Below, in pieces: positions 8,889 to 48,290 of a stretch of DNA of 64,000 nucleotides; the stretch's first letter is position 1; each line of letters starts with the position of its first letter. Under the pieces are notes generated by a model. That model was given only the letters and a program-made list of their open reading frames with translations, was not told the origin of the DNA and ran no database searches. The stretch is from an uncultured virus (IMG/VR IMGVR_UViG_3300032295_003161). Lineage: Duplodnaviria; Heunggongvirae; Uroviricota; Caudoviricetes. The position numbers and the translations under genes were made by a program. The stretch is taken from the IMG/VR virus record IMGVR_UViG_3300032295_003161; one strand, written 5' to 3'.

Positions 8889-8918
8889 AAAAAGACCGAG
8901 TAAAATCGGTCTTTTTTT
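8889..8918. terminator. bidirectional intrinsic terminator between convergent arms
   Basis: AAAAAGACCGA-gtaaaa-TCGGTCTTTTTTTT. Confidence 0.85.
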
Positions 8919-19731: not shown

Positions 19732-20520
19732 TTATCTTAATACCATATTTTTTTTCTCAAAGTCCATTACGAACTTCTCAATAATTTTCATTCTGTTTAA
19801 ATTTTGCTGACTATCGCTTTCTTTAAAAACTTCGTAAAAGGCTTGTAAGCCTTCAATTCTTGGATAACCCAAGCCTAAATAAATCAAAAGTCCATTAATG
19901 TCGGCTTCTGATTCATTGTCAATATCATCATTAACATAAAAGTGGCTAAATTCATGGCACAATATGGCGAACCTCATCGGTACGGTATATTTGTCAAAGT
20001 ATTTTTTAGCAACTTGTATTCTTCCTGTTACTCTCGAAATACGAGCAGGTGTTGTCATTTCTTTGCCAGAATTTGAACTAACAATAACTGGTAAATATTC
20101 AATAAGAAACTGACCATTATCAGACTGGTATGTCTTATTAGACGATAAATTAGGAGCATTAAAAGCGAACCTTTGAGCAAAATCAACAAAATTAGCAACC
20201 ACAACATTTTTAATATCGACAACATCTAATCTTTTTTCTAACGGTGTTTTATTTACTTCTAAAATACTTATATTTTTTTCTTGAGCCTTTGGTAAATTAC
20301 CTACTCTTTTATCGTAAACTGAAATTATTACGTTTTCCGAAGTCATTGGCAATCTAACATAAAAAGTTTGTTGACCTCTTACAGTTGCCCATCTATCGGT
20401 AAAAATAATGTTTGGCTTATCTTCAGAAGCTACTTTAACAACAACTTCACATGGTTGTTTTACAGCTACTTTAATAACCAAACACATTTCATCATATCTT
20501 GTATTTAATCTATAATTCAT
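19732..20520 (-). CDS. zincin metallopeptidase (HExxH), candidate maturation protease
   Basis: RFAILCHEFSHF...ESEAD. Confidence 0.7.
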   Translation of the reverse strand: MNYRLNTRYDEMCLVIKVAVKQPCEVVVKVASEDKPNIIFTDRWATVRGQQTFYVRLPMTSENVIISVYDKRVGNLPKAQEKNISILEVNKTPLEKRLDVVDIKNVVVANFVDFAQRFAFNAPNLSSNKTYQSDNGQFLIEYLPVIVSSNSGKEMTTPARISRVTGRIQVAKKYFDKYTVPMRFAILCHEFSHFYVNDDIDNESEADINGLLIYLGLGYPRIEGLQAFYEVFKESDSQQNLNRMKIIEKFVMDFEKKNMVLR

Positions 20521-20838: not shown

Positions 20839-20964
20839 TTATTTTGTTTCTTGTTCAAATTCTTTTGCAACCTCTTGTCTTGGCTTATAAAAACCCAAGT
20901 ATAGGTAAACTAATCCACCTATACTTAAACTGGTTAATATAATGCCTATATACCCTTTTTTCAT
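20839..20964 (-). CDS. small membrane protein (41 aa, not in ORF track)
   Basis: MKKGYIGIILTSLSIGGLVYLYLGFYKPRQEVAKEFEQETK. Confidence 0.65.
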   Translation of the reverse strand: MKKGYIGIILTSLSIGGLVYLYLGFYKPRQEVAKEFEQETK

Positions 20965-21278
20965 TAGTAAGCTTTTTTAGGTCTTTTTGATGTTATGCAA
21001 GCATCTCCATTTGCACAACTACCATATTGAGCGAAATAAGTTGTTCCATTTGGTCTTTCACAAACTTTACAACCATAAGCACCACCACTTGCATTTGCGT
21101 AACCACTCATTTTTGAATAACCACTCATTGCTGAATAAGTTTCAGAAGTTGGAGTTCCTTGTGGTTTTACTTCACTCGAACAACTACAACTTGCTTTTTT
21201 TTTGTTCTTATCCCACATATAAATTCCAACAACCGCTAACGCTAATAATCCTCCGTATAATAATTTTTTATTTTTCAT
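20964..21278 (-). CDS. N-anchored Cys-rich membrane protein
   Basis: TM; YSAMSG-YSKMSG-YANASG repeats; Cys-rich tail. Confidence 0.75.
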   Translation of the reverse strand: MKNKKLLYGGLLALAVVGIYMWDKNKKKASCSCSSEVKPQGTPTSETYSAMSGYSKMSGYANASGGAYGCKVCERPNGTTYFAQYGSCANGDACITSKRPKKAY

Positions 21279-23581: not shown

Positions 23582-23965
23582 TTATTTTTTAATCATTAAT
23601 GCTGTAAAAATAAACAAAGCAGACACTAAAATCATAGCGTTTGTTTGTTGAGCAATCATATTTGAACTTGAATTATCTTTTTCTTTAGAAACTTCTAATC
23701 CACTTGCGTTAAGAAATCCTTCTTGTCTTTTACTTCCGCAACCACAACCACAACTTGAAGTTTTAGTATCGGTAGAAAACATTTCTAAAATTATTTCTTT
23801 ATCTGGGTGGTTTTCCATTACTTTTTTCAAAGCAGGTTCTCCTACTTTAGCAACTACTTGAGATAATCCCATATCTGGCGTATTAGCGTGTTCATAACCA
23901 AATGATTCAATTATACCTTGAGCCACAATAGGATTATTTTCCGCTATATATTTATATACATCCAT
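23582..23965 (-). CDS. C-anchored membrane protein with CGCGCG motif
   Basis: HPDKE, CGCGCG, FLNASG, C-terminal TM. Confidence 0.75.
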   Translation of the reverse strand: MDVYKYIAENNPIVAQGIIESFGYEHANTPDMGLSQVVAKVGEPALKKVMENHPDKEIILEMFSTDTKTSSCGCGCGSKRQEGFLNASGLEVSKEKDNSSSNMIAQQTNAMILVSALFIFTALMIKK

Positions 23966-24062: not shown

Positions 24063-24767
24063 TTAAGCTTTTAATTTAATAGTTTGTCCATTAACAACAT
24101 TTGGATTACCAAATTGTTTTGCAACAGCGTTTCCACCTAATGCACGAGATAAGTTAATGTTATCAGCAGGATAGAAGTATAATTTAACAGTTGCGTTAGC
24201 AAGTACTTGACGAATGATAAGTTTCGTGAAACCATCAATTCTGTAAGCATACTTCATTGCGATAATATTAGTTTGTTGCTGATATGGGTCAATTGTTGGC
24301 ACTAATGTTTTTTGTGCTAAATTACCATTTGCATCTTTAGTGTTAACCGAAATAGTTTCTAAAACTTGGTTAGCAGTTGCAGATTGAATGTAAGTTAAAC
24401 CAACTGAATATGGTTGATTCATAAATTGGTACAACATTTCACGATAATTAATATCAGAAATTCCAGAAGAAATTGTAATTGAACCAATTACTAAATCTCC
24501 ACCAGTTGTGAAACCAGCATTGTTGATGTATTGGTATGAACCTAATACTTCAAAATTTGATACAGCTGAACCTGATGTAGATGTAATATCTACAATATAA
24601 GGTTGAGAAGTTGGAGCAGAACCTCCGCCCATCATATCTCCACCAGCGTTTCTGAAGAAATCATCTCCAGTAAATGATAAATCATCATCGATAAAACCAT
24701 CTGCATTTGCAAAGCTTTCCATTGCATTTCTTTGAGCAGAAGCTAAATATTTTCTTACGTTTGACAT
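24063..24767 (-). CDS. putative major capsid protein (beta-rich, possibly single jelly-roll)
   Basis: Beta-strand-rich core, acidic Gly-rich N-terminus, own promoter and terminator, three paralogs, near packaging ATPase; fold inferred. Confidence 0.6.
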   Translation of the reverse strand: MSNVRKYLASAQRNAMESFANADGFIDDDLSFTGDDFFRNAGGDMMGGGSAPTSQPYIVDITSTSGSAVSNFEVLGSYQYINNAGFTTGGDLVIGSITISSGISDINYREMLYQFMNQPYSVGLTYIQSATANQVLETISVNTKDANGNLAQKTLVPTIDPYQQQTNIIAMKYAYRIDGFTKLIIRQVLANATVKLYFYPADNINLSRALGGNAVAKQFGNPNVVNGQTIKLKA

Positions 24768-26703: not shown

Positions 26704-26923
26704 TTTTTACTTTATAAAGTTCTTTTACAATTTCAGTAAATCCTTGAATAGCTACATAACCAGTAGCTACTATTGTCCAATTATCGCCATCTAATTTGCC
26801 ATCAAATAACCCAACCGAAGCAATGATTAAAACCATTAGCTTTCTGGAAATCCAATTGTTTAAAAATTTATCAATTCTTTGCCCTGCGGATTTCCTTATG
26901 TTTTCTATTCTTTGTTTTGTCAT
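26687..26923 (-). CDS. putative holin
   Basis: SRKL followed by two hydrophobic segments, directly upstream of endolysin. Confidence 0.65.
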   Translation of the reverse strand: MTKQRIENIRKSAGQRIDKFLNNWISRKLMVLIIASVGLFDGKLDGDNWTIVATGYVAIQGFTEIVKELYKVKNGQNN

Positions 26924-27738
26924 AAGTAATATTTTAAAATTCTATCCTTGTGAAATTTAACCGCATCAGCTGGAGTAAATTTCTTTTTACCACCTTGCAA
27001 TTCTTTTTGTTGAAGCATTGGTGTAATTAGCTTTCTATAATTGTGAGAAATGTACTCATCAATAATAGGGTCTAATTTTTTTATATCTGCTCCTTTTATT
27101 TTTTCATCATCAATATCTACATAAACATAAACCCTTTGATTATCGTATTCGTGATATTCTTTATTTGTGTAAAGTTCAACGATTTTAAACATTTCGTATT
27201 TATCTTCAAACTTATTTCTATGCTTATCTACTGAATCGGTATTTTTGTGAAAACGCATCCAGTTTAAATTCTGCCAAATCTTTGGAGAAACACGCCCAAT
27301 AGATTGAAAGTGTAATATAATGTCCGTATCAGTATGCCTATTTGTTACAATAGCACCAACAAGGTCATTTGGCAAGTAATCCGATATGTAACGATTAATA
27401 TCTTCAATAAGCAAAAGTCCATTTCTAAAATCAAACAAAATCTTAAATAGCGTTTCTTGAACATCATTAATTGTCATTCGAGTTCCGTTATCGTGAAAAG
27501 GTCTAATTCTTCTAATTTCTATTTTAGGGTGCATTGAAAATCTTTTCACATCTGAAATACGCAAAGCTTTAATATCTTCATACTCATCATTAACATCAAG
27601 TATAAGTACCCTTCTTGGTCTTGTTCCTTTAGTTGGATTGCCTTGAACATAACTTTGAAGCATTTGCTTGGTCGTAAAAGTTTTTCCACAACCTTTACGA
27701 CCAACAGCAACGCCTAATTTTGGTTCTCTTTCTTCCAT
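26920..27738 (-). CDS. genome packaging ATPase, A32/FtsK-HerA type
   Basis: Walker A GRKGCGKT, Walker B LLLIED, RHxxxxxxxxxQ motif (NRHTDTDIILHFQ); no nuclease domain. Confidence 0.8.
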   Translation of the reverse strand: MEEREPKLGVAVGRKGCGKTFTTKQMLQSYVQGNPTKGTRPRRVLILDVNDEYEDIKALRISDVKRFSMHPKIEIRRIRPFHDNGTRMTINDVQETLFKILFDFRNGLLLIEDINRYISDYLPNDLVGAIVTNRHTDTDIILHFQSIGRVSPKIWQNLNWMRFHKNTDSVDKHRNKFEDKYEMFKIVELYTNKEYHEYDNQRVYVYVDIDDEKIKGADIKKLDPIIDEYISHNYRKLITPMLQQKELQGGKKKFTPADAVKFHKDRILKYYL

Positions 27739-27739
27739 A

Positions 27740-28429
27740 TTATTTTTTTAACCATTCAACAAATTTTTGAAATTTTGTTTTTTTGGATTGAAATTCTATT
27801 TTTTTAATCCCAGTTGTTGGATTTGGGTAAAAATATATGCTAAATGTTGTTTTTGGCAATATTTCAGAATAAATTATATCGGTAAACATATCAATTCCAT
27901 AATTGTATTTTACAACTACAATATTAGTTTGTTGTTGATATGGGTCAATTGTTGGCACTAATGTTTTTTGTGCTAAATTACCATTTTCATCTTTTGTTAT
28001 TATTTCAAATGTTTTTATCGATTGTTCTTGATTACCAAAAGCAACTACATAAGTTAAACCAACTTGAAATGGCTGTACCATAAATTGAAATAAAATATCT
28101 TTATAAGAAATATTATGTATGCCAGACCTAATACTTATATAGCCTTTATTTTTTTTAATAAAAATATTCCCTACATTATCTAAATACTTACTATTTTGAT
28201 ATTCTGAAAAACTTAATATTTTAAAATCTTTTATGGTTTCACTTGTATTATTAGATATGGTTAAAATATAAGGTTCAAGTGTTGTTGGGTCTATTTCTTC
28301 TTCTTCAACTCCTTTTTTATATTTTTTAGATACAAAAAATAATATAAACAACTTTAATTGTCTTAAAACACTATTTAAAAAGTTTGACAGTAAACTTTTT
28401 TCTCTGATTGATAATTTATTTTTTTTCAT
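27740..28429 (-). CDS. capsid-protein paralog
   Basis: NGNLAQKTLVPTIDPYQQQTNI identical to 24063-24767; VGLTY, YFYP conserved. Confidence 0.75.
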   Translation of the reverse strand: MKKNKLSIREKSLLSNFLNSVLRQLKLFILFFVSKKYKKGVEEEEIDPTTLEPYILTISNNTSETIKDFKILSFSEYQNSKYLDNVGNIFIKKNKGYISIRSGIHNISYKDILFQFMVQPFQVGLTYVVAFGNQEQSIKTFEIITKDENGNLAQKTLVPTIDPYQQQTNIVVVKYNYGIDMFTDIIYSEILPKTTFSIYFYPNPTTGIKKIEFQSKKTKFQKFVEWLKK

Positions 28430-28470: not shown

Positions 28471-28983
28471 TTAAATAGAATCTAAAAAATGTTTTACAAT
28501 ATAATTTTTTTCTGTTTTTTCTGTAAGACTTATATAAATTTTAATAGATGCTTTTGGAAGAATTTTAGAAATTTTTATTTTAGAAAAACCATTCAACTTA
28601 AAATTATAATCTATAACTGTTTCATTTTTTTCTTCATTATCTTTAAAACAAGGAACTTCTAATCTTTGAAAAAGATTGCCATTTGCATCGGAATTTATAA
28701 ATTTTAAAGTTTGCAAAACTTGTTTTTCTTTTTCATTTTTACTTTTGCTAAAAATAACAATTTTATCTGTTTTTAAATTAATATCTATAAAATCATTTAA
28801 AATATCTTTATAAGTAATGTCAGAAAATCCAGAACTTATTTTGACTGAACCAATGTTTAAATTTCCTTTTACATCAAAATTTGAATTGCTTATGTTTGCA
28901 TAAGGACATAATATTTCAAAATCTAAAATATCTTCATTTGAAAAAGATTCTATATTTATTATATATATATTTTTATATTCCAT
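28471..28983 (-). CDS. divergent capsid-protein paralog
   Basis: IGSVKISSGFSDITY, QVLQT, DANGNL, NGFSK align to capsid gene. Confidence 0.7.
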   Translation of the reverse strand: MEYKNIYIINIESFSNEDILDFEILCPYANISNSNFDVKGNLNIGSVKISSGFSDITYKDILNDFIDINLKTDKIVIFSKSKNEKEKQVLQTLKFINSDANGNLFQRLEVPCFKDNEEKNETVIDYNFKLNGFSKIKISKILPKASIKIYISLTEKTEKNYIVKHFLDSI

Positions 28984-32013: not shown

Positions 32014-32349
32014 TTAAGTTGTTTCGTATTTTTTACCTAAAGCTTTTTTTACATTGTACTTTACTTCTTCAATGTCGCCATTCATATTTTCATATTCTTC
32101 AGCAGTTGGTTGCTCATCTAATTGTTTAATAGCTTTTCTATAATAGAAAATACCATAAATTGACAAAGTGATTAGTAATGCACTAATAACAATATCTTTA
32201 ATGTTCATTTTACCACTTGTAATACTTCCCATTGCCCCACCTTCTGAATAACTTGTTTCAATTGTTGGTGCTGGTGTTTCTACCGATACTGGCGGTGCAG
32301 TATTTACTGGTGTTGCTTCCGCTACTGGCGGTGTACTTTGTCCTTCCAT
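32014..32349 (-). CDS. membrane protein with YSEGG motif
   Basis: Pro/Thr-rich N-terminus, YSEGG, central TM. Confidence 0.75.
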   Translation of the reverse strand: MEGQSTPPVAEATPVNTAPPVSVETPAPTIETSYSEGGAMGSITSGKMNIKDIVISALLITLSIYGIFYYRKAIKQLDEQPTAEEYENMNGDIEEVKYNVKKALGKKYETT

Positions 32350-33515: not shown

Positions 33516-34161
33516 ATATGTATGCACCTCCTAATGCGATTAATCCAATTCCTAAAACTAATGCTAATTTATTACCTGTTGACAAAGCGTAAGGCTTGTT
33601 CAGTACATAAAAAGCATCTAATCTATTCAGCCACCCTTTAAGGTTTTTTGGTTGATTTAAAGCCTTGTATTTACTTGCTCTAAAATCATATAGTTTTTCA
33701 AACAATTCTGGTGTTTGACCCTTTTTATCTAACTCATTAACGTAAGCCACTATTTGACCTATATTATTAAATGTTTTATTGTAGCTTGATTTGAAAAATT
33801 GTTTCAAAAAACTTGTTGCTCCTCCTACTCCACTTCCCCAAGCCATTTCTACAAAAGTATTTGCAATAGCTTGATTTCTTACTTCATCTCCTTTCATTGG
33901 ATTCCAATACCCTTGTTTGTATATTTTCCCCCAAACATCATTTGGCATATTCAAAAAGTTTGAACAAGAACCACTATATCCTAAACTTGAAGCGTTAGAA
34001 CTAAATGTTGACCAAGTTACCCCTTTATTAGTGTGATATGGTTGTCCATTAGAACCACTACCGCAAGGCGATGGATTTCTACTCGCTGTATCTGTTGTAG
34101 CGGAACTCAATCCACCTTCTTTTGATTTAATAAATGATATTATGTTTCTATAATCTGCCAT
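33496..34161 (-). CDS. glycoside hydrolase family 108 lysozyme with C-terminal TM anchor
   Basis: KEGG, TNKGVT, IYKQGYW, GWLNRL; hydrophobic C-terminus. Confidence 0.85.
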   Translation of the reverse strand: MADYRNIISFIKSKEGGLSSATTDTASRNPSPCGSGSNGQPYHTNKGVTWSTFSSNASSLGYSGSCSNFLNMPNDVWGKIYKQGYWNPMKGDEVRNQAIANTFVEMAWGSGVGGATSFLKQFFKSSYNKTFNNIGQIVAYVNELDKKGQTPELFEKLYDFRASKYKALNQPKNLKGWLNRLDAFYVLNKPYALSTGNKLALVLGIGLIALGGAYIYVRTRK

Positions 34162-34454
34162 TACCATAAAATTTTATCAGCATAATATCCATTTGAACCA
34201 ACTTTATGTCGGTCTTTTTCATGCCTTTCTTTATACAATTTTCTACGCTTGTATGCGTAACCTTTTTCGTAATACCCCTTTTTTTCTTTTTCAAGATATG
34301 TAGGGTAATCATTCATTCCTCTCGCACCAACACTCGCTACTTTCTTACCATTTTTAAAAACATCTATTTTTTTCAAAAGGTTGGTAGATGGTTTAATAAC
34401 CACCCCCAACTCTTTTGCCTTTCTAAAGCTATATGGTAAAATTTTGTAAGCCAT
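34161..34454 (-). CDS. DUF5754-like small basic protein
   Basis: KPST..KKIDV...VGARGMNDY...RRKLYKERH...YYADKILW. Confidence 0.6.
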   Translation of the reverse strand: MAYKILPYSFRKAKELGVVIKPSTNLLKKIDVFKNGKKVASVGARGMNDYPTYLEKEKKGYYEKGYAYKRRKLYKERHEKDRHKVGSNGYYADKILW

Positions 34455-37415: not shown

Positions 37416-40400
37416 CTATTTTTTTCGCATTTGCTCGTTTGCACGTTTCAATGCACTTTGCCAACTTTCGCCATCTTTACGAATTTGTTTTGCTAATTGC
37501 ATAGCACCACCTCTTTTGGTTGTTGAGCCACCGCCTGACATCTTACTATCGTACTTCGCTTTCTGACTTCCTGCAATTTTATTACCTACTTCTTTTGCTT
37601 CAGCTTTGTCATAAGTCTTACCATACTCTTTTTGATATTTTGGTTCTACCTTTTTGCCTTCAAAATTTTTGGCTATTGCAGTTGCTTTTTCTTTGAAAGT
37701 GGTTTTGCCACCGCCTTTGTAAGAAATTTTATTTTGTTTTTTTAATTCAGAAAATGCTTTTTCAAAATCTTTTTGATTTTTTGGATTTAAACCATGTTCA
37801 TTACAATAAAAATTTACTTTATGTAAATCGCTTGAATAATAATAATCTTCTACTCCATTAGAAAATTTTACCTTTTCGTACATTACACCATCAACCATTT
37901 TAGTATCGCCACCGCCACCAAAAGAAACACCTTTTTGTTTTAAAGCACTACGATACATTTTAGCAATGTCAAGTAACATTGGATAACCATCAAACTCTAT
38001 ATTAGACTTATTTACTACTTCTTTTTGTGTTTTACCAGAATAAGGTTCGTAATATTCAAAATACAATCTACCATTTTTGTAAACTATTGGTTTATATTGC
38101 ATAGGTTCTTCCCAAGTACCGCTTTTGTCAATTACCATTATTGGGTCGCCATCTTTATCAATTGCCTTTTCAATAAGAGAGTTAACTTCATCTACCTTTT
38201 TTTGAATTTTAGATTCTAATTTACCTCCTTTTAAAAATTCCATTTCTAATTGACCGCCATCATCATATTTAGAAGTATGAATTGGTTTTGCCCCTTTTTT
38301 AATCCAATAACCATTAGCCACCTTAACATCTTTGCCATCTTTCAACTGAACTTTAACTACATTTCTTTTTGAAACGTAAAAAGCCGTTCTTTCAAGGTTT
38401 CCGCCATCTTCTAACTTGTATGCACCATTATATACATCTGATACCTTATAAGTCAATTTTTTGTCGCCTTTTTTAATTGTAATGGTATTTAATTGGTTTC
38501 GGTTAATGTAGTTTTTAGTTAAACCGCCAGTTGCGTATTTTAAAGGATTATTTTCGTAATTTCTACCTTTTTTGAAATCATAATCATCTTTATCTTTCAT
38601 ACTTCCAATAAAAAGTTCTTTATGATATATTTCAATATAACTATAATTTTCTTTTTTAGCTATTTTTATAGCGTTTTCAATTATATCTTCAAAACTATCT
38701 GAACGTAATATTTTTTCTTCAGAAGTGTCTTTATCTGAAATAGATTTATAAAAATCTACATCAAATCTTTTTAAACCATCAACTCCACCGCCAGTTGCGT
38801 AAACTCCATTTTGAAAACCGCCTTCTTCAAAACTTCTTTTGCCAGAATACCCTGTTCTATTTGGCTTGTTTTTAGCATAACGAACTTCATAGTCTTGAGC
38901 TTTGTTAACGTGTCTTCTTTCATTAGTGTAACCGCCTTTTGCGAAAGGTAATGGTGGTGTAACTCCTCTATAACCATTAGCTAAATTTACATAAACAATA
39001 TCTCCGCTTTTAGTTTTTACTTTTTGAACTCCACCTGACATTGTTTTGATAATTTCATCGCCTTGCTTTAAACCATGATTACCAAGTGAACCGCCCATTG
39101 CGTATTGACCCATTTCAACATGGTGTTCAAATGATTTTTTTATTTTTGTTGGTAAAAATTTGTAAGCAGTTTTAGTTGCTTTTTCAATACTCATTGGTGT
39201 ACTTTCAATTTCTTTTGAATGGTCTTCTAAAAAATGATACTTTTGAGAAACTGATAACATACTCCAAATTTGGCTTGGCGTTTTACCTTCATATTGATTT
39301 TCAATAGAACCACCTTCTGCAAACATTTCTCCTGCCGACATACCGCCAGTTTCTCCAACAAGTCCTGTATAGTCAATATCTAAGCCTCTTGCCAATGGTG
39401 TTTCTGGTGTACCGATAATTGTACCGCCTTCTGCATATCCATAACCTCGTCTGTGTGGTTTGTCTTTTGAATAACGAACTTCATAATCTTGACTATGATT
39501 AACATATCTTCTTTCACGAGTTCTGCCACCGTTTGCATATTGCAAAGCGTTTAAAGATATTCTTAAAACTTCATTCATTTTTGAAACTGTCTTTTGTTGT
39601 AAAGCATACTTCAAATTGTCGGTTGTAATTCTTTTTACAATTTCACTACCACTTCTATAATCTTCCATATTATCTAAAAGATTTTGAATTGGCTCTCTTT
39701 TTTGTGAAATAGTTTTTAAACTAATAATATAAGAAACTTGAGAGTTTATGAATTTTTTAAATTTTTCGTCTTCAATACTTCCGCCATTATCAAAAGCCAA
39801 TGCTTCTGGACTTGCACCATGCATTTCTCTACGCTCTCCAAAAGACTTATTACCACCTTGTTGAGTTTTAGTTGCTTTTACAATTCCATCATCTGTCAAA
39901 TCAATTTCTTCATCTAATGTTTCTACATAAACACCTTTTTCTGCATAAGAACCAAACATTTCTTTTAATTCTTGAACAGCATCTTCTCTGTTTGTGTACC
40001 ATTCTCCTACATATTCTCCTTCTTCAGACATATCCTCAACTCTATACAATGGTTTAGAATTGTAATGGTCAATACCTTTGTAAACATAAAAAGGACTTAA
40101 TCTGAATTTTTGTTTAGTATGCACATTTACAATAACACTATTAGGCATAGTGCTTGGCTTACCACCATCTTCACTTTCCCAATCTCCAGAAGTCCAATTA
40201 TAACCACTTAATCTATTTAATTGAGTGCTTAATGGTATTAATTCTAATGGTTTTAATTCTATAATTCCATCAACTCCACCGCCATTTTCTAAATAAGCAT
40301 TTTTAAATCCACCTACATCAACTCTATTGGCTCTATTTTCGTAATATACATTACCATCAGCCGATACTCTTTTACCTCTTGGCAAAGCACGTCTTGAAGC

Positions 40401-40937
40401 ATCTTTTGGTAAATTAGAAGTACCTGCAAGTTTTTTGTATTCCTTGTTTCTACGAACCATTGCCAATAACTTATCTGTTTCAGTTCTTGTTTTCTTTTTA
40501 GTTTCGGTAGTTTCTGACTTCATCATTTTTCTTGCACGTTCCTTCGCATCTTCCCAACTTTCATTGTCTTTACGAATTTCCTTTGCAATAGAGAAAACAC
40601 TTTTTTTCTTTGCAGTAGATTTTGGCTCAACTTTTGGTGTTTTGGTTTCACTTTGAGTAGCCTTTTTTTCTCTTGCCTTGCGTGGTGCTTTTTCCTTTTT
40701 TTCTTCGGCTTTAGCTTCTGCTTGTTCTTCTTTTTCTTCAGCTACTTCAAGTGCCTTTTCAACCTTTTTTTCTATTTCTTTGACTTCCTCTTTTACTTCG
40801 GTAGCCGTAATAGTTTCATCAGTTTTAATATCCGCTTCTAACTTTTTAATTTCAGCACGAATTTTGTCTTTCATGTTGTCTGGAATAAACTTGTTATCCA
40901 ATGACTTTTTTAATTTTTCTAATTTTTCTGTATTCAT
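37416..40937 (-). CDS. large modular (polyprotein-like) virion cargo candidate
   Basis: 1173 aa; about 16 [FYLM]xxGG motifs separate short modules; internal repeats. Confidence 0.8.
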   Translation of the reverse strand: MNTEKLEKLKKSLDNKFIPDNMKDKIRAEIKKLEADIKTDETITATEVKEEVKEIEKKVEKALEVAEEKEEQAEAKAEEKKEKAPRKAREKKATQSETKTPKVEPKSTAKKKSVFSIAKEIRKDNESWEDAKERARKMMKSETTETKKKTRTETDKLLAMVRRNKEYKKLAGTSNLPKDASRRALPRGKRVSADGNVYYENRANRVDVGGFKNAYLENGGGVDGIIELKPLELIPLSTQLNRLSGYNWTSGDWESEDGGKPSTMPNSVIVNVHTKQKFRLSPFYVYKGIDHYNSKPLYRVEDMSEEGEYVGEWYTNREDAVQELKEMFGSYAEKGVYVETLDEEIDLTDDGIVKATKTQQGGNKSFGERREMHGASPEALAFDNGGSIEDEKFKKFINSQVSYIISLKTISQKREPIQNLLDNMEDYRSGSEIVKRITTDNLKYALQQKTVSKMNEVLRISLNALQYANGGRTRERRYVNHSQDYEVRYSKDKPHRRGYGYAEGGTIIGTPETPLARGLDIDYTGLVGETGGMSAGEMFAEGGSIENQYEGKTPSQIWSMLSVSQKYHFLEDHSKEIESTPMSIEKATKTAYKFLPTKIKKSFEHHVEMGQYAMGGSLGNHGLKQGDEIIKTMSGGVQKVKTKSGDIVYVNLANGYRGVTPPLPFAKGGYTNERRHVNKAQDYEVRYAKNKPNRTGYSGKRSFEEGGFQNGVYATGGGVDGLKRFDVDFYKSISDKDTSEEKILRSDSFEDIIENAIKIAKKENYSYIEIYHKELFIGSMKDKDDYDFKKGRNYENNPLKYATGGLTKNYINRNQLNTITIKKGDKKLTYKVSDVYNGAYKLEDGGNLERTAFYVSKRNVVKVQLKDGKDVKVANGYWIKKGAKPIHTSKYDDGGQLEMEFLKGGKLESKIQKKVDEVNSLIEKAIDKDGDPIMVIDKSGTWEEPMQYKPIVYKNGRLYFEYYEPYSGKTQKEVVNKSNIEFDGYPMLLDIAKMYRSALKQKGVSFGGGGDTKMVDGVMYEKVKFSNGVEDYYYSSDLHKVNFYCNEHGLNPKNQKDFEKAFSELKKQNKISYKGGGKTTFKEKATAIAKNFEGKKVEPKYQKEYGKTYDKAEAKEVGNKIAGSQKAKYDSKMSGGGSTTKRGGAMQLAKQIRKDGESWQSALKRANEQMRKK

Positions 40938-40943
40938 GTTTGA

Positions 40944-43061
40944 TTAATTTTCGTTTAACATTTGTAATATTTCTAATGCTTCCTGCACTTCTTTTTTATC
41001 TTCGCCTTCAAGGGTTTCTAACAACATTTCAAGCGTTTCAATTGCTTCTTGTAATTCATTGGTTTCGGTTTGTTTTTTTAAATTCTCAATTTGTTTTTTT
41101 CGTTTTTCTTTATAAGAAGAACTACCTATTCCTTGAGTAAAACCTTTTGATTCGATTACATATTTTTTAGTATTAACTTTTTCTTTTTCAACTTTCGATT
41201 CGTTGGTTTCAGTTGGTTTAGTTTCAATAATTGGTACAATTTCAGCAGTAGTTTCTTTTATTTCTTCTACTACTTTTTTCATTTGTAATTCAGCACTAAA
41301 GAAATCTTTATTTTCTTTTAGGAAAATCTCTATTAATGGTTTGATTTTTTCATTAAAAATTTCAGCCTTTACAAAAACCTCTTGATTTGATATTTTCTCT
41401 GGAACATTAAAAGCACCATACCCATATACAATTTCTACATCATCGCCATATTGTTGCATTACAAAATATTGTTGCATTGCTCTGGCAAAACATTCCTTTG
41501 TAGCATTTATATAATCATTTTGTTGCTCTTTTGGTTTATTCAAGTTATTTCTAAACGTAAAAGCAATTACTCCTGCGGTAGATTCAAAGTTATCAGTTTC
41601 CCAACGCTTACCATTTTTTTGACCTAATTTATTATCAATAAAGTGTGCCAATTCGTGAGCAAATGTAGAGTTAAATTGAATTTCTCCATACTTATCAGAA
41701 ACGGCAATTGTACCCATACTTGGAATATAAACTCCAACCGCTTTTTGTGCAAAAACCAATTTTTTACCAGTATGAGAAATTTTCATATTGTTCTTTATAA
41801 ACTCCTCTTTTAAATTACCGAAAACTTTGCTAACATCAATTAAACCTTGTTGAATTTGCTCGGTTTCTGATGCGTTTATTTTATCTCCATTTTGTCTTTT
41901 TATCAATACTCCATAATCGGCATACAAGTAGTTTTCGGTATTAGATTCTCCAAATGAAGTTTCAATAGCCGTTTTGTAGTTTTCAGACATTTCTTCTCTT
42001 TGGAACTCAATATCTTTAAACTTGTACTCCATCATTTCTCTAAAATCTCTCCAATATTTGAAAACTAATGGGTGTGCATAAGCTCCAACAGATTTTTCTC
42101 CTATCTTTAATCGAGTGGTTTTATTGGAAGCAGTTCTTAAAAATTCTGGATTAATAAAGACATTATACATATCGTGAAACGATGAGTACATTCTATCTTC
42201 TCTTAATGCTGTTTTAATTTTTTCTGAACCATAAACCTTGTATGCAGGCGATAATTTTTCTTTTTCACTTAAAGGTAAATCAATCCATTCTTGCTCGGTA
42301 TATTTTTTCTGTAAAGCTTTGCTTATAGAATAATAAAAACCTTTTTGGGCATAATGTTTTTCTCTACGTTCTAAAGGCAATGAAAAATAATACTCTTTTG
42401 ATTTTTCAGTTTTTTGGTCGGCTTTTTTCTTATAAACAGCTTTAAGTTTAGTTAAATAGTATAAGCTAATTAATACCAATTGGTCAAGAGTTACTAAAAA
42501 AACTTGAGATTGATTTTCAAAAGTACTATATTGATAATCCGAATAAGAAACCACATAAGTATCGTTTGTATATCTAATTGCATCCAAAACAGTACTTCTT
42601 CTTTCAAATTTTTCCTCATCAATGAAAGGAATGTATGGAGGTGCTGGGTCAACTAAAATTGTTTCTGGGTCAAATATAATTTTATCTGTTTTTACGTTTC
42701 TAAAATCAGGAACACCTTTGTAAACTTTTCCTGTTTTATCTTCAAACTCAATTATAGTACCACCATTTGAAATTGCTTTTAGTTGATTATCAATATTTTT
42801 TAATTGATTTGTTTTAATGTTTACTAAAGCACTAATAGCTCCTCTTTTGTTCATTATAACTTCACGTTGTTTCCATTCAGCAATAGATGAATACTCTACT
42901 TTTAAAACTTCATCTTCATCTTTAAGTTTTTGAATTTCATTTGCAAGTGCTTCTTTTTGATTAGAAAAATCCAACAAAACTTTTTCAGCAAATTCCTTTG
43001 CCATTTTTTGTGCTAACTCTAATTCTTCTTCGGTTAAATATTTTTTTAAATCTTCCATCAA
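40944..43061 (-). CDS. polyvalent-protein-like zincin (LPD1/MPTase-like)
   Basis: TFAHELAHFIDN...ECFARAMQQY. Confidence 0.7.
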   Translation of the reverse strand: MMEDLKKYLTEEELELAQKMAKEFAEKVLLDFSNQKEALANEIQKLKDEDEVLKVEYSSIAEWKQREVIMNKRGAISALVNIKTNQLKNIDNQLKAISNGGTIIEFEDKTGKVYKGVPDFRNVKTDKIIFDPETILVDPAPPYIPFIDEEKFERRSTVLDAIRYTNDTYVVSYSDYQYSTFENQSQVFLVTLDQLVLISLYYLTKLKAVYKKKADQKTEKSKEYYFSLPLERREKHYAQKGFYYSISKALQKKYTEQEWIDLPLSEKEKLSPAYKVYGSEKIKTALREDRMYSSFHDMYNVFINPEFLRTASNKTTRLKIGEKSVGAYAHPLVFKYWRDFREMMEYKFKDIEFQREEMSENYKTAIETSFGESNTENYLYADYGVLIKRQNGDKINASETEQIQQGLIDVSKVFGNLKEEFIKNNMKISHTGKKLVFAQKAVGVYIPSMGTIAVSDKYGEIQFNSTFAHELAHFIDNKLGQKNGKRWETDNFESTAGVIAFTFRNNLNKPKEQQNDYINATKECFARAMQQYFVMQQYGDDVEIVYGYGAFNVPEKISNQEVFVKAEIFNEKIKPLIEIFLKENKDFFSAELQMKKVVEEIKETTAEIVPIIETKPTETNESKVEKEKVNTKKYVIESKGFTQGIGSSSYKEKRKKQIENLKKQTETNELQEAIETLEMLLETLEGEDKKEVQEALEILQMLNEN

Positions 43062-43064
43062 ATA

Positions 43065-46000
43065 TTAATTTAAAGGTGTTCTAATTGGTTCAAAAGTTAA
43101 TTTTCTACTCATTATACCACCGCTTTCAAAACTTTCTTCTTTTAGCATATTTATAATTTCTAATGCTTCATAAATTTCTTTTCTTTGCTCCTCGTTTTCT
43201 TCAATTTCAGCCAACATCAACAAGGTTTCAATAGCTTCTCTAACTTGCTCTTTTTCTACATTTACAGCTTCTTTTTTCGCTTTAGCTACCTTTTTAGGTT
43301 GTTGCTTTGTTTTTTCCTCTGGCAAAGTCTTTTTATAGTCTATTGCATCAATAGGGAAAACATAGGCTTTTAAAGGCTCTGAAAAATAACATTCTACTTC
43401 AGTATCGGTTATAGTTTCAAGCATTACTTCAAACAATTTTTTACCAAAAGCAAAATACTGATTTTCTTTAAATTCGTCTTTAACTGGCATTAATAAAAAT
43501 ACCGATTTATCTAAACTGATATTTGTGTCAACTTGCTGGTAATTAAAATCAATTTCACATAATTCAATTTTATCTATCAATTCGTATTCTATATTGTAAC
43601 GTATTTCTTTTTGTGCTTTTAAAAATAAAGTATTTCCTTCATTTGCAAAAATTAAAGAAGCAATTTTACTATATTTTTCAATAAATTTTTCAACCTTTTC
43701 GTTACTTAAACAATTATTCATAACAACGTGGTCAAATACTATTTTTTGCGTAGTAGTTCTTGGTATAATAGCATCATATTTAGAATATCTACCATCAATA
43801 GTTCTGGCTACAAAATCAATATTTTCTGCTTCAATAAAAATGTTAGCTTTACTACATTTAAAGTGTAAAGAACCATCTGCCAACTTAACAAATTGTTTTA
43901 AATAATTTACTGGTAAAATGTATTCTAACTCTTTATCATCTTTGTCAAACTCACAATATTCTGTAATATTAATTTTGCAAAGAGTATGAGCGTTAGTAGT
44001 TACTAAAAACATTTGATTATCACTTGTTTTCTTAATACAAATACCTGTCATTATTGGTCTTAAATTATCATTACCTACCGACAACAATAACTTGTCCAAA
44101 TAGAACTCAAATACTTCGCTAAATGTTACAAATTCAAAAGCAGTATTTTGCCCCTTTATCTCTCCTAAATAGTTCCCTTCATTAACTTCATTTTTATTAA
44201 AAATCCTTTGACTTGGAAAATCGTCAATTGGATTCATAGTAATCATTGGAGCTTTATTATAAAATTCATAAAGTCCATCTGGTGCATCAACATTTTTTAT
44301 TTTAATATCTATTTCTAAATCAGAAACAGTTAAAACTTTGTCTTCTATTTTAGCAAAACTTAATGAAAACAAACTATGTTTTTGTGTTTTATTTAAAAAA
44401 GACTGAACTAAATCCAAATACTCATCGTCAAGTATCATATTAGATTCATATTTCAGTTTGTATTCAGCTACCGACCCATCTGCATTGTGAATTTCGTTAT
44501 CATTGAAATCGTAATATACTTTTAAACCTCTTTCATTATTAACATCTTCTGCACCATAACCATCAAAATCATAAGCAAATTTCGGCATTATTAACAATAT
44601 CTCATCGTTCCCTAATTCATAATTTTTATTAGTGGTAAATACAACACCTCTACTTGGTAAATATATGAAAGCATAAACCTCTTTATGTCCTAATTTTAAT
44701 AATGTAGTTAATATATCTATTAAATATTTTCCATTAAATCCTATCTTCATATCATCTCCAAATCTAAAAGAAATATGAAATGTTGTTGTATTAGCATATT
44801 TTATAGCTGTTTTGGTATATTGCAATAATTTAAAAACATCTACTAAATAAGGAGTACCTGCATCTTGTTTTTTAGGTATTACGTTTTCATATTGTGCATA
44901 TTTTTCATTAATCAAAAGCGATTCATTTGAATTTGATTTTTTTACCTTATTTATATCATAAACACCATTATACTTTTCGTTTGGATAAGGCAAAGTAATT
45001 AAAATATGTGCATTAGTAGCAGTAATACCATTTTCGTCAAAATTAACACCAGTTAAATTTAATCTTTCGCTATCTGGATTTTTATCTAAAAATGGCTCAA
45101 GAATACTACCTAATCCCTTATCAATAGGATTATTAATAAAAGGAACTTTTTTTGTATTTGTTATGTTTTTAAAAATACTTGGCACTTTGCTCCATTCGTA
45201 AACTTGAGGACTTAATGTTTGACCATAATTTTTATTTGTTGTTAAATTCATTTTTTCGTAGTTTTCTTCAACGTATTTTTTTGCTTTTTCAACCGAATCA
45301 AAATATTCTGTAATAACATCTGAATAGGTACGATTAAAACTTTCTCCATGAATAGAACTTAATACAATTACAGTTAAAGATACTTCTCCACGTTTGTTTT
45401 TAAGTATTTCGTAACTATATTTTTCGTCTATTTTTTTATAAATTTCTTTACCATCCCTATATCTACTAACTTTCCAACCATCTTCAGTAGTTGTTACAAC
45501 GCTTGGTTGTTCGATTGAACTTTTTATTCCTCCTCCACCAGCATACAATCCACTTTCAGCACCTACCATACCATCGGCTTCCATATCTAAAACATCATTG
45601 TAGTTGTTCAAATCCCTTGAAGGGTGGTCGCCTTTTTTAGATTCTTCAACTAAATTAAGTTGACCGCCATTATCAAATATATTTGAATTTTGCTCTTTGT
45701 AATCAAACACATAAGCCATTACTTCTTTTTCGTCTTTTAGAATAGCATTAGTAATCCTATGGTGTCCATCTAAAACGTAATATTTATCATTTAGCTTGAA
45801 CAAAATAGGGTATGATTCAACATCTTTTGTAGATTCAATATTAGGAATAGTTACATTTCTTTGAGAAGGAACTATGCTTTTTAAATCAACCATTTCAGTT
45901 GGCAATTTAGTTTCATTTTCTAAATAAGGGTCGGCAGTAGAAACAACACTCGCTGGTAAAACCTCTACTTGATTAAAGAAAATTTTATTAGTAGGCACTT

Positions 46001-46520
46001 TTGGGAACGTACTTTTATTTTCTCTTTTTAAATCAGCAATTTTTTGTTGGTATTCGTTTAAGCTACCACCATTTTTGTATTCTTCATCGCAACCGCAACT
46101 ATTCATAGATTGCATAATTTCATAATCAGTCATAGTCTTGCCACCGTAATTGTATGAACTACCATTGAAGTATAATTCACTTGGCACATCGCCACCTTGC
46201 TCAAAAGAAACTCCACCGCCAGAAACATTGATTTTAGACAATATTTCTCTATTGGTAAGCATTTCCCCTTGAAATTCTTTTTTAGTTTGGTCTGCAACCG
46301 CTGGAGCTGTAATAATAACTTCACTTGATTGAACTTCAATAGGTTGCCCAGTAGATTTATTAATCCCTTTTATACCTCCCTCTTTATGTAATTTACCAAC
46401 AAAATAACCGCCAACAGTAGCATCATCGTAAATCATAGTTTGACCTTCTCTTTTGCCAACTAAAACTCCGCCTGCTGGTGTTTTTTTTGCTTCATCTAAT
46501 GTTATTGTGTCTTTTTTCAT
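43065..46520 (-). CDS. large modular protein: xxGG modules, ParB/Srx-like domain, DNA sliding-clamp-like domains
   Basis: GKLHKEGGI..EVQSSEVI; YYVLDGHHR; LTGVNF..ATNAHIL, RPIMTGI..VTTNAHTL, IDGRYSKYDAIIP. Confidence 0.75.
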   Translation of the reverse strand: MKKDTITLDEAKKTPAGGVLVGKREGQTMIYDDATVGGYFVGKLHKEGGIKGINKSTGQPIEVQSSEVIITAPAVADQTKKEFQGEMLTNREILSKINVSGGGVSFEQGGDVPSELYFNGSSYNYGGKTMTDYEIMQSMNSCGCDEEYKNGGSLNEYQQKIADLKRENKSTFPKVPTNKIFFNQVEVLPASVVSTADPYLENETKLPTEMVDLKSIVPSQRNVTIPNIESTKDVESYPILFKLNDKYYVLDGHHRITNAILKDEKEVMAYVFDYKEQNSNIFDNGGQLNLVEESKKGDHPSRDLNNYNDVLDMEADGMVGAESGLYAGGGGIKSSIEQPSVVTTTEDGWKVSRYRDGKEIYKKIDEKYSYEILKNKRGEVSLTVIVLSSIHGESFNRTYSDVITEYFDSVEKAKKYVEENYEKMNLTTNKNYGQTLSPQVYEWSKVPSIFKNITNTKKVPFINNPIDKGLGSILEPFLDKNPDSERLNLTGVNFDENGITATNAHILITLPYPNEKYNGVYDINKVKKSNSNESLLINEKYAQYENVIPKKQDAGTPYLVDVFKLLQYTKTAIKYANTTTFHISFRFGDDMKIGFNGKYLIDILTTLLKLGHKEVYAFIYLPSRGVVFTTNKNYELGNDEILLIMPKFAYDFDGYGAEDVNNERGLKVYYDFNDNEIHNADGSVAEYKLKYESNMILDDEYLDLVQSFLNKTQKHSLFSLSFAKIEDKVLTVSDLEIDIKIKNVDAPDGLYEFYNKAPMITMNPIDDFPSQRIFNKNEVNEGNYLGEIKGQNTAFEFVTFSEVFEFYLDKLLLSVGNDNLRPIMTGICIKKTSDNQMFLVTTNAHTLCKINITEYCEFDKDDKELEYILPVNYLKQFVKLADGSLHFKCSKANIFIEAENIDFVARTIDGRYSKYDAIIPRTTTQKIVFDHVVMNNCLSNEKVEKFIEKYSKIASLIFANEGNTLFLKAQKEIRYNIEYELIDKIELCEIDFNYQQVDTNISLDKSVFLLMPVKDEFKENQYFAFGKKLFEVMLETITDTEVECYFSEPLKAYVFPIDAIDYKKTLPEEKTKQQPKKVAKAKKEAVNVEKEQVREAIETLLMLAEIEENEEQRKEIYEALEIINMLKEESFESGGIMSRKLTFEPIRTPLN

Positions 46521-46521
46521 A

Positions 46522-47157
46522 TTATCCTATTAAAAACTTTAAATAGTCTGGCGTACCGCTATCGGCAATACCGCCTTTCTCAAATCTTATGTCGTTGTTT
46601 TTTTTATCAAATGTAGTGTTAGTGCCATCCGCAAGTTTTATTTGGTTAGAATTATTAACAACGTATAAATTATCTTTTCTTGTTCCAAATATTATTATGC
46701 CATCAAGCATTTCATCAATAAATAATTCTCTAATGTAATCTCCTCTGTTAATATCATAATTATCAGCAGGTGCATAATAATCACTATTTGTTCTTCTAAT
46801 TAAAGGATTTTTTATATTCAAAAAACATTCGTAAACAAAACCTTTGCTTTTAAGTTCAGAATGTAATTTAGCATAGTTTTCAGCAGATTGTTTTCTTTGA
46901 GTAAAGAAAAAACCTCCTTGCTCACTTTGAATATAATTTAAACCTATTTTTTTTCTATCAAAAACATTAAAATAGCTCCCTGTTCCATGATAAACCACCA
47001 TTGGCTCTCCATTTTCATCAACAACCTTACTTGCGTTTTCTGGGTCGTTTTCCCAATCCCCAAACCATTTCTTAAATTCTGGTGTGCGGACTAACTTATA
47101 TTGTTCAGTAGTTAAATTGCTTGGCTTACCATTAGGTGCTAATAACTCTTTTTTCAT
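46522..47157 (-). CDS. ADP-ribosyltransferase-like (ART-PolyVal type) protein, copy 3
   Basis: FKKWFGDW..SKVVDENGEPMVVYHGT, GFFFT, NQIK. Confidence 0.75.
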   Translation of the reverse strand: MKKELLAPNGKPSNLTTEQYKLVRTPEFKKWFGDWENDPENASKVVDENGEPMVVYHGTGSYFNVFDRKKIGLNYIQSEQGGFFFTQRKQSAENYAKLHSELKSKGFVYECFLNIKNPLIRRTNSDYYAPADNYDINRGDYIRELFIDEMLDGIIIFGTRKDNLYVVNNSNQIKLADGTNTTFDKKNNDIRFEKGGIADSGTPDYLKFLIG

Positions 47158-47158
47158 A

Positions 47159-47713
47159 TTATCCTATTAAAAACTTTAAATAGTCTGGCGTACCGCTATC
47201 AGAAATACCGCCTTTATCAAATCTTATATCGTTGTTGTTTTTGTCAAATGTAGTATTAGTACCATCGGCAAGTTTTATTTGGTTTGGATTATATACATTT
47301 ATATTAAAAAATGGTTTTTTTTTCTGTAAAACATCATCCCACTCTCCATATTTATAAATATAAGCATCAAAACCTTTTTCATCATAATCATCTCTAATTT
47401 TATCTGTTATTTTTCTTGCATTTATAAAATAGAGTTTACTTTTGCCATAATTATTTGCTAAATTTTTATTATCGGTAAACCAATGACCTACTCTTATATC
47501 ATTAAATTTGTTTTTAAAAATATTAAACCTTTTATTTGTTCCATGATAAACCACTAACGGCTCTCCATTTTCATCAACAACCTTACTTGCATTAGCAGGG
47601 TCGTTTTCCCAATCCCCAAACCACTTTTTAAATTCTGGTGTGCGGACTAACTTGTATTGTTCAGCAGTTAAGTTGCTTGGCTTACCATTAGGTGCTAATA
47701 ACTCTTTTTTCAT
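47159..47713 (-). CDS. ADP-ribosyltransferase-like (ART-PolyVal type) protein, copy 2
   Basis: Same termini; GHWFT core. Confidence 0.75.
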   Translation of the reverse strand: MKKELLAPNGKPSNLTAEQYKLVRTPEFKKWFGDWENDPANASKVVDENGEPLVVYHGTNKRFNIFKNKFNDIRVGHWFTDNKNLANNYGKSKLYFINARKITDKIRDDYDEKGFDAYIYKYGEWDDVLQKKKPFFNINVYNPNQIKLADGTNTTFDKNNNDIRFDKGGISDSGTPDYLKFLIG

Positions 47714-47714
47714 T

Positions 47715-48290
47715 TTATCCTATTAAAAATTTTAAATAGTCTGGCGTACCGCTATCAGAAATACCGCCTTTATCAAATCTTATATCGTTGTTGTTTTTAT
47801 CAAATGTAGTGTTAGTACCATCGGCAAGTTTTATTTGGTTTGCTTGAAAAACTACAATTTCATTTTGAAGAATAACTCCATCATAACCATCTTTTTGTAA
47901 TTTTTTTGTTAAGGTGGATTTATTTTTATTGTAATATTTTTCAGACCATTCTTTTAATGAATTTTCATCTAAATAAAATGGCTCTTTAATAAAACAATAT
48001 AAATTTAAAACAATATTCCCGTAATTAGATGCTGTTTTTTCATTTTGAGTAAAATAAAATCCCTCCCCATAACTTCCTCTGTTTGATTTTTCAAACTTGT
48101 TAAATGTTTTAAATGTTCCATGATAAACCACTAACGGCTCTCCATTTTCATCAACAACCTTACTTGCATTAGCAGGGTCGTTTTCCCAATCCCCAAACCA
48201 TTTTTTAAATTCTGGTGTGCGAACTAATTTATATTGTTCAGCAGTTAAATTGCTTGGCTTACCATTAGGTGCTAATAACTCTTTTTTCAT
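47715..48290 (-). CDS. ADP-ribosyltransferase-like (ART-PolyVal type) protein, copy 1
   Basis: YHGT, GFYFT, GYDGVI, EIVVF, NQIK. Confidence 0.8.
   Translation of the reverse strand: MKKELLAPNGKPSNLTAEQYKLVRTPEFKKWFGDWENDPANASKVVDENGEPLVVYHGTFKTFNKFEKSNRGSYGEGFYFTQNEKTASNYGNIVLNLYCFIKEPFYLDENSLKEWSEKYYNKNKSTLTKKLQKDGYDGVILQNEIVVFQANQIKLADGTNTTFDKNNNDIRFDKGGISDSGTPDYLKFLIG

Follow-up and report, generated by a model that had tools for sequence, protein, structure and literature searches.

Why should the long proteins of an uncultured virus be punctuated, over and over and at irregular intervals, by one short motif that ends in Gly-Gly (GG)? The question is raised by a 64,000-nucleotide stretch of viral DNA (IMG/VR record IMGVR_UViG_3300032295_003161; the whole stretch is called the window here), and specifically by its positions 37416-48290, where a sequence-only reading had picked out [FYLM]xxGG as the recurring border between short modules. 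Selection maintains the motif as a peptide signal where exchangeable cassettes are joined in frame, and its codons are the points of crossover. That these joints are also read by a protease in virion cargo is given about an even chance (a probability of roughly 0.5), and the argument for it, the argument against it and its rivals are set out below.

A punctuated polyprotein

37416-40937, minus strand: cassette polyprotein of 1173 amino acids (aa); basic conserved N-terminal part (residues 1-215), 16 motifs, 15 inner segments of 5-161 aa, basic conserved C-terminal modules
39441-39536, minus strand: ERRxVNxxQDYEVRY cassette, copy 1 (residues ~468-499; repeat family D4, 74% DNA identity to 38847-38942)
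38847-38942, minus strand: ERRxVNxxQDYEVRY cassette, copy 2 (residues ~666-697; repeat family D4)

The 1173-aa protein carries every one of the 16 motifs that had been ascribed to it, at residues 216, 382, 467, 501, 539, 612, 665, 703, 713, 801, 842, 891, 901, 1006, 1073 and 1133; 2000 shuffles of the same protein averaged 1.57 and never exceeded 6, so that the enrichment predicted from the sequence lies far above its shuffled background. The residue two after the GG is hydrophobic in 15 of the 16. All 16 relatives compared have a homologue, and neither Pfam nor PHROG offers a named domain or family for it. Both internal duplications noticed at the protein level are also present in the DNA: the ERRxVNxxQDYEVRY pair listed above, copy 1 of which belongs to a module cluster (m6) with 10 copies in 6 genomes, and a second pair (37439-37493 and 40532-40586) at 76% identity. 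Many modules of the window are basic or unstructured peptides of 5-50 residues that belong to no family, and the short basic modules of the 1173-aa protein look more like core or DNA-binding peptides than like enzymes.

Anatomy of the motif

Related viruses are represented by 20 records, used whole or in part, with sizes up to 68-132 kb. For motif statistics, 563 sites were collected from 53 motif-rich proteins of 17 genomes (the window and 16 relatives); removing three fibre-like proteins with FIGGG repeats left the 50 proteins to which later counts refer. The composition of the 563 sites can be written (in per cent) as Y40/F36/M13/L11, then A48/E18/K10, then D/K/N, G, G, any residue, and V/L/I/T/M/F (~90%); the last of these positions, two after the GG, lay outside the selection criterion. 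When all GG pairs are considered, the position three before GG is enriched 5.1-fold for Tyr, 4.6-fold for Phe and 3.5-fold for Met; Leu, which had been admitted as a first residue, is not enriched (1.0), and Ile stands at 0.3. The form [FYM][AE][DKNE]GGx-hydrophobic occurs 254 times, against 0.7 in shuffled sequences, while variants with one glycine are found at chance (6 against 6.9, and 9 against 7.5): both glycines, to judge by these counts, are required. Some single chains hold at least 30 copies.

Is it the DNA or the peptide that is kept? The GG pair is encoded by 15 different codon combinations, with the second Gly at background usage; because these codons vary freely, selection must act on the peptide, and a fixed DNA site for a recombinase is ruled out by the same variety. 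Sequence is constrained on both sides of the GG, and for that reason the pattern is likened to that of protease subsites.

A second motif, [FY]-x-N-[AF]-[DSTE]-G, occurs 58 times (6.2 in shuffled sequences) over 21 genomes. In the window it lies twice in the arm of a candidate coat protein (24063-24767, described below), and in the small membrane proteins at 23582-23965 and 20964-21278.

Cassettes exchanged at the motif

Two close relatives have the same modules in a changed order. Where alignments of the 1173-aa protein with its homologues break off internally, they do so at the motif: 61 of 74 inner ends fall within 8 residues of one, as against 23% for random placement (maximum 38% in 200 draws), and for all 50 proteins the proportion is 56.5% of 2157 ends, with 15.3% expected. 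Crossovers in DNA were counted by hand, taking the inner ends, from residue 216 onward, of alignments with three homologous genes. Eighteen of the 22 lie between -5 and +17 bases of the motif start in both sequences; among the remaining four, two are at +21 and +26, one is at the motif in the relative only, and one is at -16/-4. The module shuffling at GG in homologues that had been anticipated is thus seen in protein and in DNA alignments.

What is exchanged is generally small. Splitting the proteins of the 17 genomes at their motifs yields 520 modules of at least 12 aa in 259 clusters, 81 of them with more than one member (median module length 74 aa). The motifs keep clear of folded domains: only 4 fall within 30 Pfam domain hits, with 23.3 expected; LPD11 is fenced by motifs 4 residues away on each side in two proteins, and ArdA begins 6-7 residues past one. 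Cassettes in the relatives that can be named are ArdA, ART-PolyVal, zeta kinase, RelA/SpoT, DarA_C, N6-methylase, LPD11, DUF2958, DUF5661 and DUF5824, and an ART or zeta domain that is a free gene in one genome is a cassette in another. With the same 15-21 bases at both ends of every cassette, and in frame, the signal would also be a hub for recombination. A plausible machinery for exchange over such short homologies, in a role assigned from gene content, is encoded in the window:

6929-8791, plus strand: PD-(D/E)XK exonuclease (PDDEXK_1, E 5e-5) and RecT annealing protein (RecT, E 1e-31)

Could the motif be a flexible hinge and recombination hub and nothing more, spreading because its codons supply the microhomology for cassette exchange, with no specific reader of the peptide? 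The DNA ends just counted and the presence of RecT with its exonuclease are what such a hub would need; on the other side, variation at synonymous positions goes with strict retention of the two glycines, the aromatic residue and the hydrophobic residue at +6, and single copies that are never shuffled are conserved in two protein families (those of 3673-4653 and 32014-32349, below). We consider it improbable that the joints are this and no more.

Heads, tails and single motifs

43065-46520, minus strand: 1151-aa polyprotein; m0 head, four short or medium cassettes, 801-aa motif-free part, terminal motif and 16-aa tail
46179-46520, minus strand: head domain m0; invariant H45, E62, E67, T89, S95 and N98; ends in GGGVx, then the motif
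40944-43061, minus strand: 705-aa protein with a HELAH zincin-like domain (phrog_87 metalloprotease, E 6e-5; phrog_22901, E 7e-38)
46522-47157, minus strand: ART-PolyVal 1, FEKGG and 15-aa PDYLKFLIG tail (PF18760, E 2e-24)
47159-47713, minus strand: ART-PolyVal 2, FDKGG and tail (PF18760, E 1e-17)
47715-48290, minus strand: ART-PolyVal 3, FDKGG and tail (PF18760, E 4e-25)
3673-4653, plus strand: conserved basic protein with a C-terminal motif followed by 2-3 residues (13 of 15 family members end in GG and 2-3 aa)
32014-32349, minus strand: small predicted membrane protein (21 family members; membrane segment read from sequence)

The five motifs named for the 1151-aa protein recur in the count, joined by YNYGG: seven pattern hits at six sites, where shuffling gives a mean of 0.76 and a maximum of 5. 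Past the fifth site the protein is free of motifs for 801 residues (43068-45530), a part that contains a DNA polymerase III β-clamp-like domain (DNA_pol3_beta_2, E 3e-10). A weak ParB-like match covers residues 153-281.

Its head domain, m0, occurs once per genome in 21 of 21 genomes and has 1378 library matches at E<=0.001; among the best 150 of these 1378 m0-carrying proteins, 141 have at least three motifs, so that the motif system is widespread. The domain is a candidate address, or else a candidate self-processing domain. Its structural model (pLDDT 65) has no fold match, and the proposals that m0 is a known protease, or has the anchor fold of phage crAss001, found no support in Pfam, PHROG, PDB sequences or folds: against the crAss001 C1 anchor domain (PF25725; gp45 residues 425-552) a feature score of 0.88, no more than a lead, goes with an hhalign probability of 0.4% and a low-confidence model, and the likeness of m0 to lambda gpH is not significant.

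The neighbouring 705-aa protein has no motif at all. Its HELAH site is lineage-restricted (the window and G006 only, of 21 genomes). A helical C-terminal tail, EAIETL...EALEIL, is common to the 705-aa and 1151-aa proteins (40950-41061 and 43137-43182) and is confined to the window, G006, G014 and G016; these four also appear to be without a MoxR-like AAA ATPase gene pair, which elsewhere sits between the two polyprotein genes.

The three ART proteins end, as had been described, in RF[DE]KGG and a 15-residue tail; their genes (46522-48290) are tandem copies with ends 88-95% identical and catalytic middles that diverge. The PDYL tail is portable, being found on 18 proteins of 7 genomes whose bodies are ART, zeta-kinase or unnamed, laid out as the motif, 6 residues (in 16 of 18; 9 and 10 in the other two) and P[DEN]YLxxF[L/I], the tail after the motif being 15-16 aa long. 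A motif followed by a portable tail on unrelated enzymes has the layout of cargo, site and address.

Single motif hits, such as those of the ARTs, 3673-4653 and 32014-32349, have p values of 0.07-0.25 each and are not significant alone. They are kept in their families, however, among them those reported for 3673-4653 (FEKGG-KIS-stop) and 32014-32349 (YSEGG). The terminal GG of the former is absent from two members (G026 and G028). In the latter the motif stands at the end of an N-terminal arm that is variable, disordered and rich in Pro and Ala, much as in a propeptide, and in a cluster of 19 members the conservation of its GG reaches at least 90%.

Is the motif cut?

The favored reading, that the joints of virion cargo are read by a protease and double as recombination points, would work as follows: 1) The long proteins would be recruited into the assembling particle by their unvarying modules at head and tail (m0, the PDYL tail, the basic ends). 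2) A protease acting in maturation, for which the core zincin introduced below is the most plausible choice, would cut at or next to the motif, with three conceivable positions: behind the aromatic residue, between the two glycines, or behind GG. 3) Cutting would free core peptides, small and basic, together with small enzymes directed at the host (ART, ArdA, zeta kinase, DarA/DarB-like), which would then be delivered. 4) RecT-type annealing would swap cassettes without breaking the frame. That these proteins are virion cargo in the first place is suggested by the position of their genes (upstream of the structural block, and co-oriented with it) and by their domain content. The sequence-only reading had proposed cleavage and/or packaging signals that release small effectors from virion-loaded precursors; in its favor now stand a selected border signal, shuffling at the motif, and relatives whose cargo is of the virion-delivered polyvalent type, while cutting, packaging and an effector role of the products stay predictions.

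Which enzyme would read the motif? Two had been put forward:

19732-20520, minus strand: core zincin (HEFSH...E); in 20 of 20 genomes for which the DNA examined spans the locus; HExxH and downstream Glu invariant
10231-10725, minus strand: H-box/NC (LRAT/PPPDE-like) protein with a hydrophobic C-terminal helix (Peptidase_C97, E 6e-5, under the cut-off)

The core zincin co-occurs with the motif in all 20 genomes, is the sole universal predicted peptidase among the aligned conserved families, and is accordingly retained as the best virus-encoded candidate; searches of Pfam, PHROG, PDB sequences and phage records return no match to it. The H-box/NC protein fares worse: it is found in 9 of 21 genomes (one of five in a six-frame search) and is missing from G010, a complete genome with terminal repeats, and from G029, G001 and G028, all of which encode motif-rich proteins, so it cannot be required. 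The HELAH protein (40944-43061) was likewise discarded as a general protease on account of its distribution. Known Gly-Gly specialists were sought in five relatives, with no match to Peptidase_C5 (adenain; positive control silent), C48 (Ulp1; control rang) or Prok-JAB (control rang in 8 of 14); the pattern Q..[DN]CG does not occur in the open reading frames (ORFs) of 21 genomes, a search that a remote clan CE member could escape. An analogy with the proteases of adenovirus and African swine fever virus (ASFV) had been drawn. It does not extend to the enzyme, as far as the C5, C48 and JAB searches reach (the first lacking its positive control), and the spacing of the site differs as well.

Several observations weigh against cutting. 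Of 495 inner segments, 47 have 5 residues or fewer, and in 11 of the 50 cargo proteins the C-terminus is no more than 5 residues from a motif; a cut at such places would free next to nothing. The 3673 family holds its motif at the very end (13 of 15), which fits an uncut docking tag. In the crAss001 cargo protein gp45 (compared below), GG pairs at 427, 434 and 447 are intact in the modelled segment 425-552; they are not strict motif sites. Cutting the lambda tape measure protein gpH at its motif (733-740) would yield 12.0-12.5 kDa, to be set against a reported ~14 kDa and an estimated site near residue 710. The zincin, for its part, may read the second motif, FxNAxG, instead, and it cannot be a universal reader, because it has no match in a phage collection that includes lambda and crAss001.

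The main rival is that the motif is never cut, and is a docking or packaging tag. It would be a short linear ligand (aromatic residue, GG turn, hydrophobic residue; possibly a β-hairpin) whose binding partner could be the inside of the capsid, a membrane protein, m0 or the packaging vertex; many copies would provide avidity, and the proteins would enter particle and cell as beads on a string. A motif at the C-terminus that only 2-5 residues follow, as in the 3673 family and the cargo proteins just counted, is what a tag would look like, as are the tandem motifs 0-5 residues apart; the conserved element stops where such proteins stop; and no known Gly-Gly protease turned up in the five relatives. 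Polyvalent proteins, moreover, are packaged or transferred uncut in examples given by Iyer et al. 2017 (N4 vRNAP, ArdC and TraC1; PMC5512222). What tells against the tag is that a separate PDYL tail, joined through the motif, would be redundant if the motif were itself the address; that free-standing folds such as ArdA are fenced so tightly; and that at least 30 copies per chain go beyond a tag's need. We consider the tag less likely than cutting.

A more elaborate use of the cut can also be imagined, in which processing exposes a C-terminal Gly-Gly, as in ubiquitin precursors, or an N-terminal Gly for ligation to a virion protein or lipid. Conserved extensions of 2-3 residues after GG in the 3673 family would suit it (we take these to resemble ubiquitin-like precursors), as would the LRAT-like acyl-transfer fold in 9 of 21 genomes. 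The remaining parts of a ubiquitin-like system, a JAB or Ulp1 protease, E1/E2 and a β-grasp substrate, did not appear: JAB and C48 are without a match in five relatives, and no E1/E2-like or other such family is present in the 85 of 88 ORFs of the complete genome G004 scanned with PHROGs. The LRAT-like gene is missing from the complete G010, and G026 and G028 dispense with the terminal GG. Ligation is the most improbable of these explanations.

A probably tailless virus

24063-24767, minus strand: candidate single-jelly-roll major capsid protein (conserved loci, β-sandwich model, jelly-roll matches; second motif FxNAxG in the N-terminal arm)
26920-27738, minus strand: FtsK/HerA-like P-loop ATPase, candidate packaging motor (DUF87/HerA, 23.9 bits against a cut-off of 23.2; 20 genomes)

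What kind of particle would carry such cargo? As a query, the coat candidate (234 aa) finds 37 viral loci, mostly at 66-99% identity, and 78 with alignment. Its model is a single β-sandwich (residues 57-200) with a disordered N-terminal arm (pLDDT 62), and its structural matches are jelly rolls at a non-specific Z of 5-6.5: PR772 chain O, the FLiP major capsid protein and phiCjT23, and also nucleoplasmin and lectin folds. Because the matches are both viral and cellular, they support the fold class, the capsid role being a prediction. Paralogues of the coat candidate lie at 27740-28429, 28471-28983 and 10685-11128 (profile E 3e-47, 3e-29 and 6e-10); the 438-aa neighbor at 8918-10234 has DUF285 repeats.

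The ATPase has one weak PHROG match, labelled terminase large subunit (E 5e-6), and Pox_A32 has no match in five relatives. Three genomes (G004, G010 and G029) are classed as having inverted terminal repeats, that is, as linear; an FtsK/HerA-family ATPase and a linear genome with such repeats are marks of the tailless, membrane-containing jelly-roll viruses with double-stranded DNA. When 85 of the 88 ORFs of at least 100 aa of the complete G004 were compared with PHROGs (E<=1e-5), no head, portal, terminase or tail family was found; in the window, such PHROG matches are weak ones only, namely that of the ATPase, a tape-measure match at 31542 (E 0.002) and matches to tail-fibre PHROGs at 12202 (E 4e-29). 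About 20 small proteins surround the coat candidate; as read from the ORF sequences, each has a single hydrophobic helix and one terminus that is basic. Taken together, these features indicate a group of bacterial viruses that is probably tailless and membrane-containing. The group appears to be undescribed: four queries (coat candidate, zincin, polyproteins) had no match, and hence no cultured relative, among 50,697 GenBank phage records; a literature search that covered few subscription journals turned up no publication about either the motif or these viruses; and the available text of PMC5894146 does not describe it.

A host among the Bacteroidota is a guess, prompted by gene content and no more. 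Genome contigs with the coat candidate number 7 and are assigned to bins of unrelated taxa; one of these, a 132-kb contig in a Sediminibacterium bin, has phage-like genes throughout, among the ORFs listed, and therefore offers no evidence of a prophage.

Other conserved genes deserve mention. A 97-aa basic protein (34161-34454) with a weak DUF5754 match is among the most conserved (20 genomes). The gene at 4656-5420 (plus strand) forms a conserved pair with 3673-4653 (plus strand) in 15 genomes; its 254-aa product has invariant TD..AYW, K...LA.L and TDCIYY, which recall motifs A, B and C of family-B polymerases, the exonuclease part being absent. The idea that the pair encodes a minimal family-B polymerase and a terminal protein was set aside: the motifs were matched by eye, and neither Pfam nor the PDB supports it.

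What the motif offers

One may be tempted to go further, on what is rather unlikely ground: aromatic-(A/E/K)-x-Gly-Gly-x-hydrophobic would be a single unrecognised signal for maturation or ejection across unrelated types of virion (this tailless jelly-roll group, crAss-type cargo, and siphophage tape measures, including the lambda gpH cut), made into a plug-in standard in the present group. It would combine a peptide signal with an in-frame recombination site for hundreds of mini-proteins, and its reader, protease or receptor, would lie outside the known Gly-Gly-specific families.

The motif is of use in any case. Hundreds of phage modules, small and so far without a name, receive from it exact borders drawn by evolution; since these modules adjoin known anti-restriction and NAD-using enzymes, they can be listed as candidates for counter-defence. 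A protease or receptor of new specificity is predicted, and the motif offers a concrete candidate site for the lambda gpH cut, unmapped for 50 years. If cutting is confirmed, a bacterial virus parallels the core maturation of adenovirus and ASFV with another enzyme.

Comparison with known systems

The nearest relatives in design are the polyvalent proteins, large mosaics that combine ART-PolyVal, LPD11, DarA_C, N6-methylase, SNF2, ArdA, RelA/SpoT and zincin domains. Their processing by zincins was predicted by Iyer et al. (PMC5512222), who cite processing of P1 DdrB; the words "glycine" and "linker" are absent from the searchable text of that paper, which describes no joint motif. The proteins studied here are likewise mosaics with conflict-related enzyme domains, of which the window itself names only the ARTs, the β-clamp-like domain and the HELAH protein. 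They differ in that most modules are small (median 65-74 aa) and unnamed and the virus is apparently tailless.

In ASFV, maturation of pp220 and pp62 by pS273R takes place at Gly-Gly sites. Adenovirus and ASFV share with the present system a Gly-Gly that a hydrophobic residue precedes, in proteins that are here probable precursors of virion components, basic core-like peptides between the sites, and a linear, inverted-repeat genome, with a candidate jelly-roll coat in the present case; here, a second, related motif stands in the coat candidate. The adenovirus protease cuts at (M/I/L)XGG↓X and (M/I/L)XGX↓G (arrows mark the cut; PMC4246237). The motif departs from that consensus in having one more residue before GG, with the enriched, preferably aromatic, position three before it, and a constrained residue after GG; the virus is bacterial, and no clan CE protease was found in the searches described above.

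Internal proteins of phage T4 carry a capsid-targeting sequence that is cut by gp21: the same logic of address, protease site and cargo. Phage P1 packs DarA and DarB, an anti-restriction cargo, into its particle (PMC9024508). T4 and P1 are HK97-type tailed phages with Glu-specific head proteases, whereas no such head genes were found among the scanned ORFs of G004.

The cargo protein C1 (gp45; PDB 7QOG) of crAss001, a tailed podovirus and in that respect different, is proven virion cargo with FDTGG, FAEGG, FAYGG and looser x-A-x-GG joints (PMC10172136). Its stretch GGxH...EQGEVV resembles m0 by eye. None of the strict sites (17, 260 and 559) falls within a modelled segment, and segment 425-552 begins at the Ala of N-A-F-G-G. 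Both modelled pieces of gp45 (L105:11988-14516), 214-245 in the tail and 425-552 at the portal, start within a few residues of x-A-[FY]-G-G. Cutting of gp45 may be an alternative to the published single-chain reading; the accessible text of that paper reports no cleavage, with 0 matches for "cleav" or "protease".

Lambda, finally, cuts its tape measure protein gpH into gpH* and gpHC near a glycine-rich C-terminal region, at an unmapped site around residue 710 that removes ~14 kDa (PMC12617516). FATGGFT at 733 and YATGGYV at 778 match the extended motif, and they lie in or just past the region in which the cut has been placed. The differences are that gpH has two sites in a tail protein and no cassette array, and that the fit in mass is rough.

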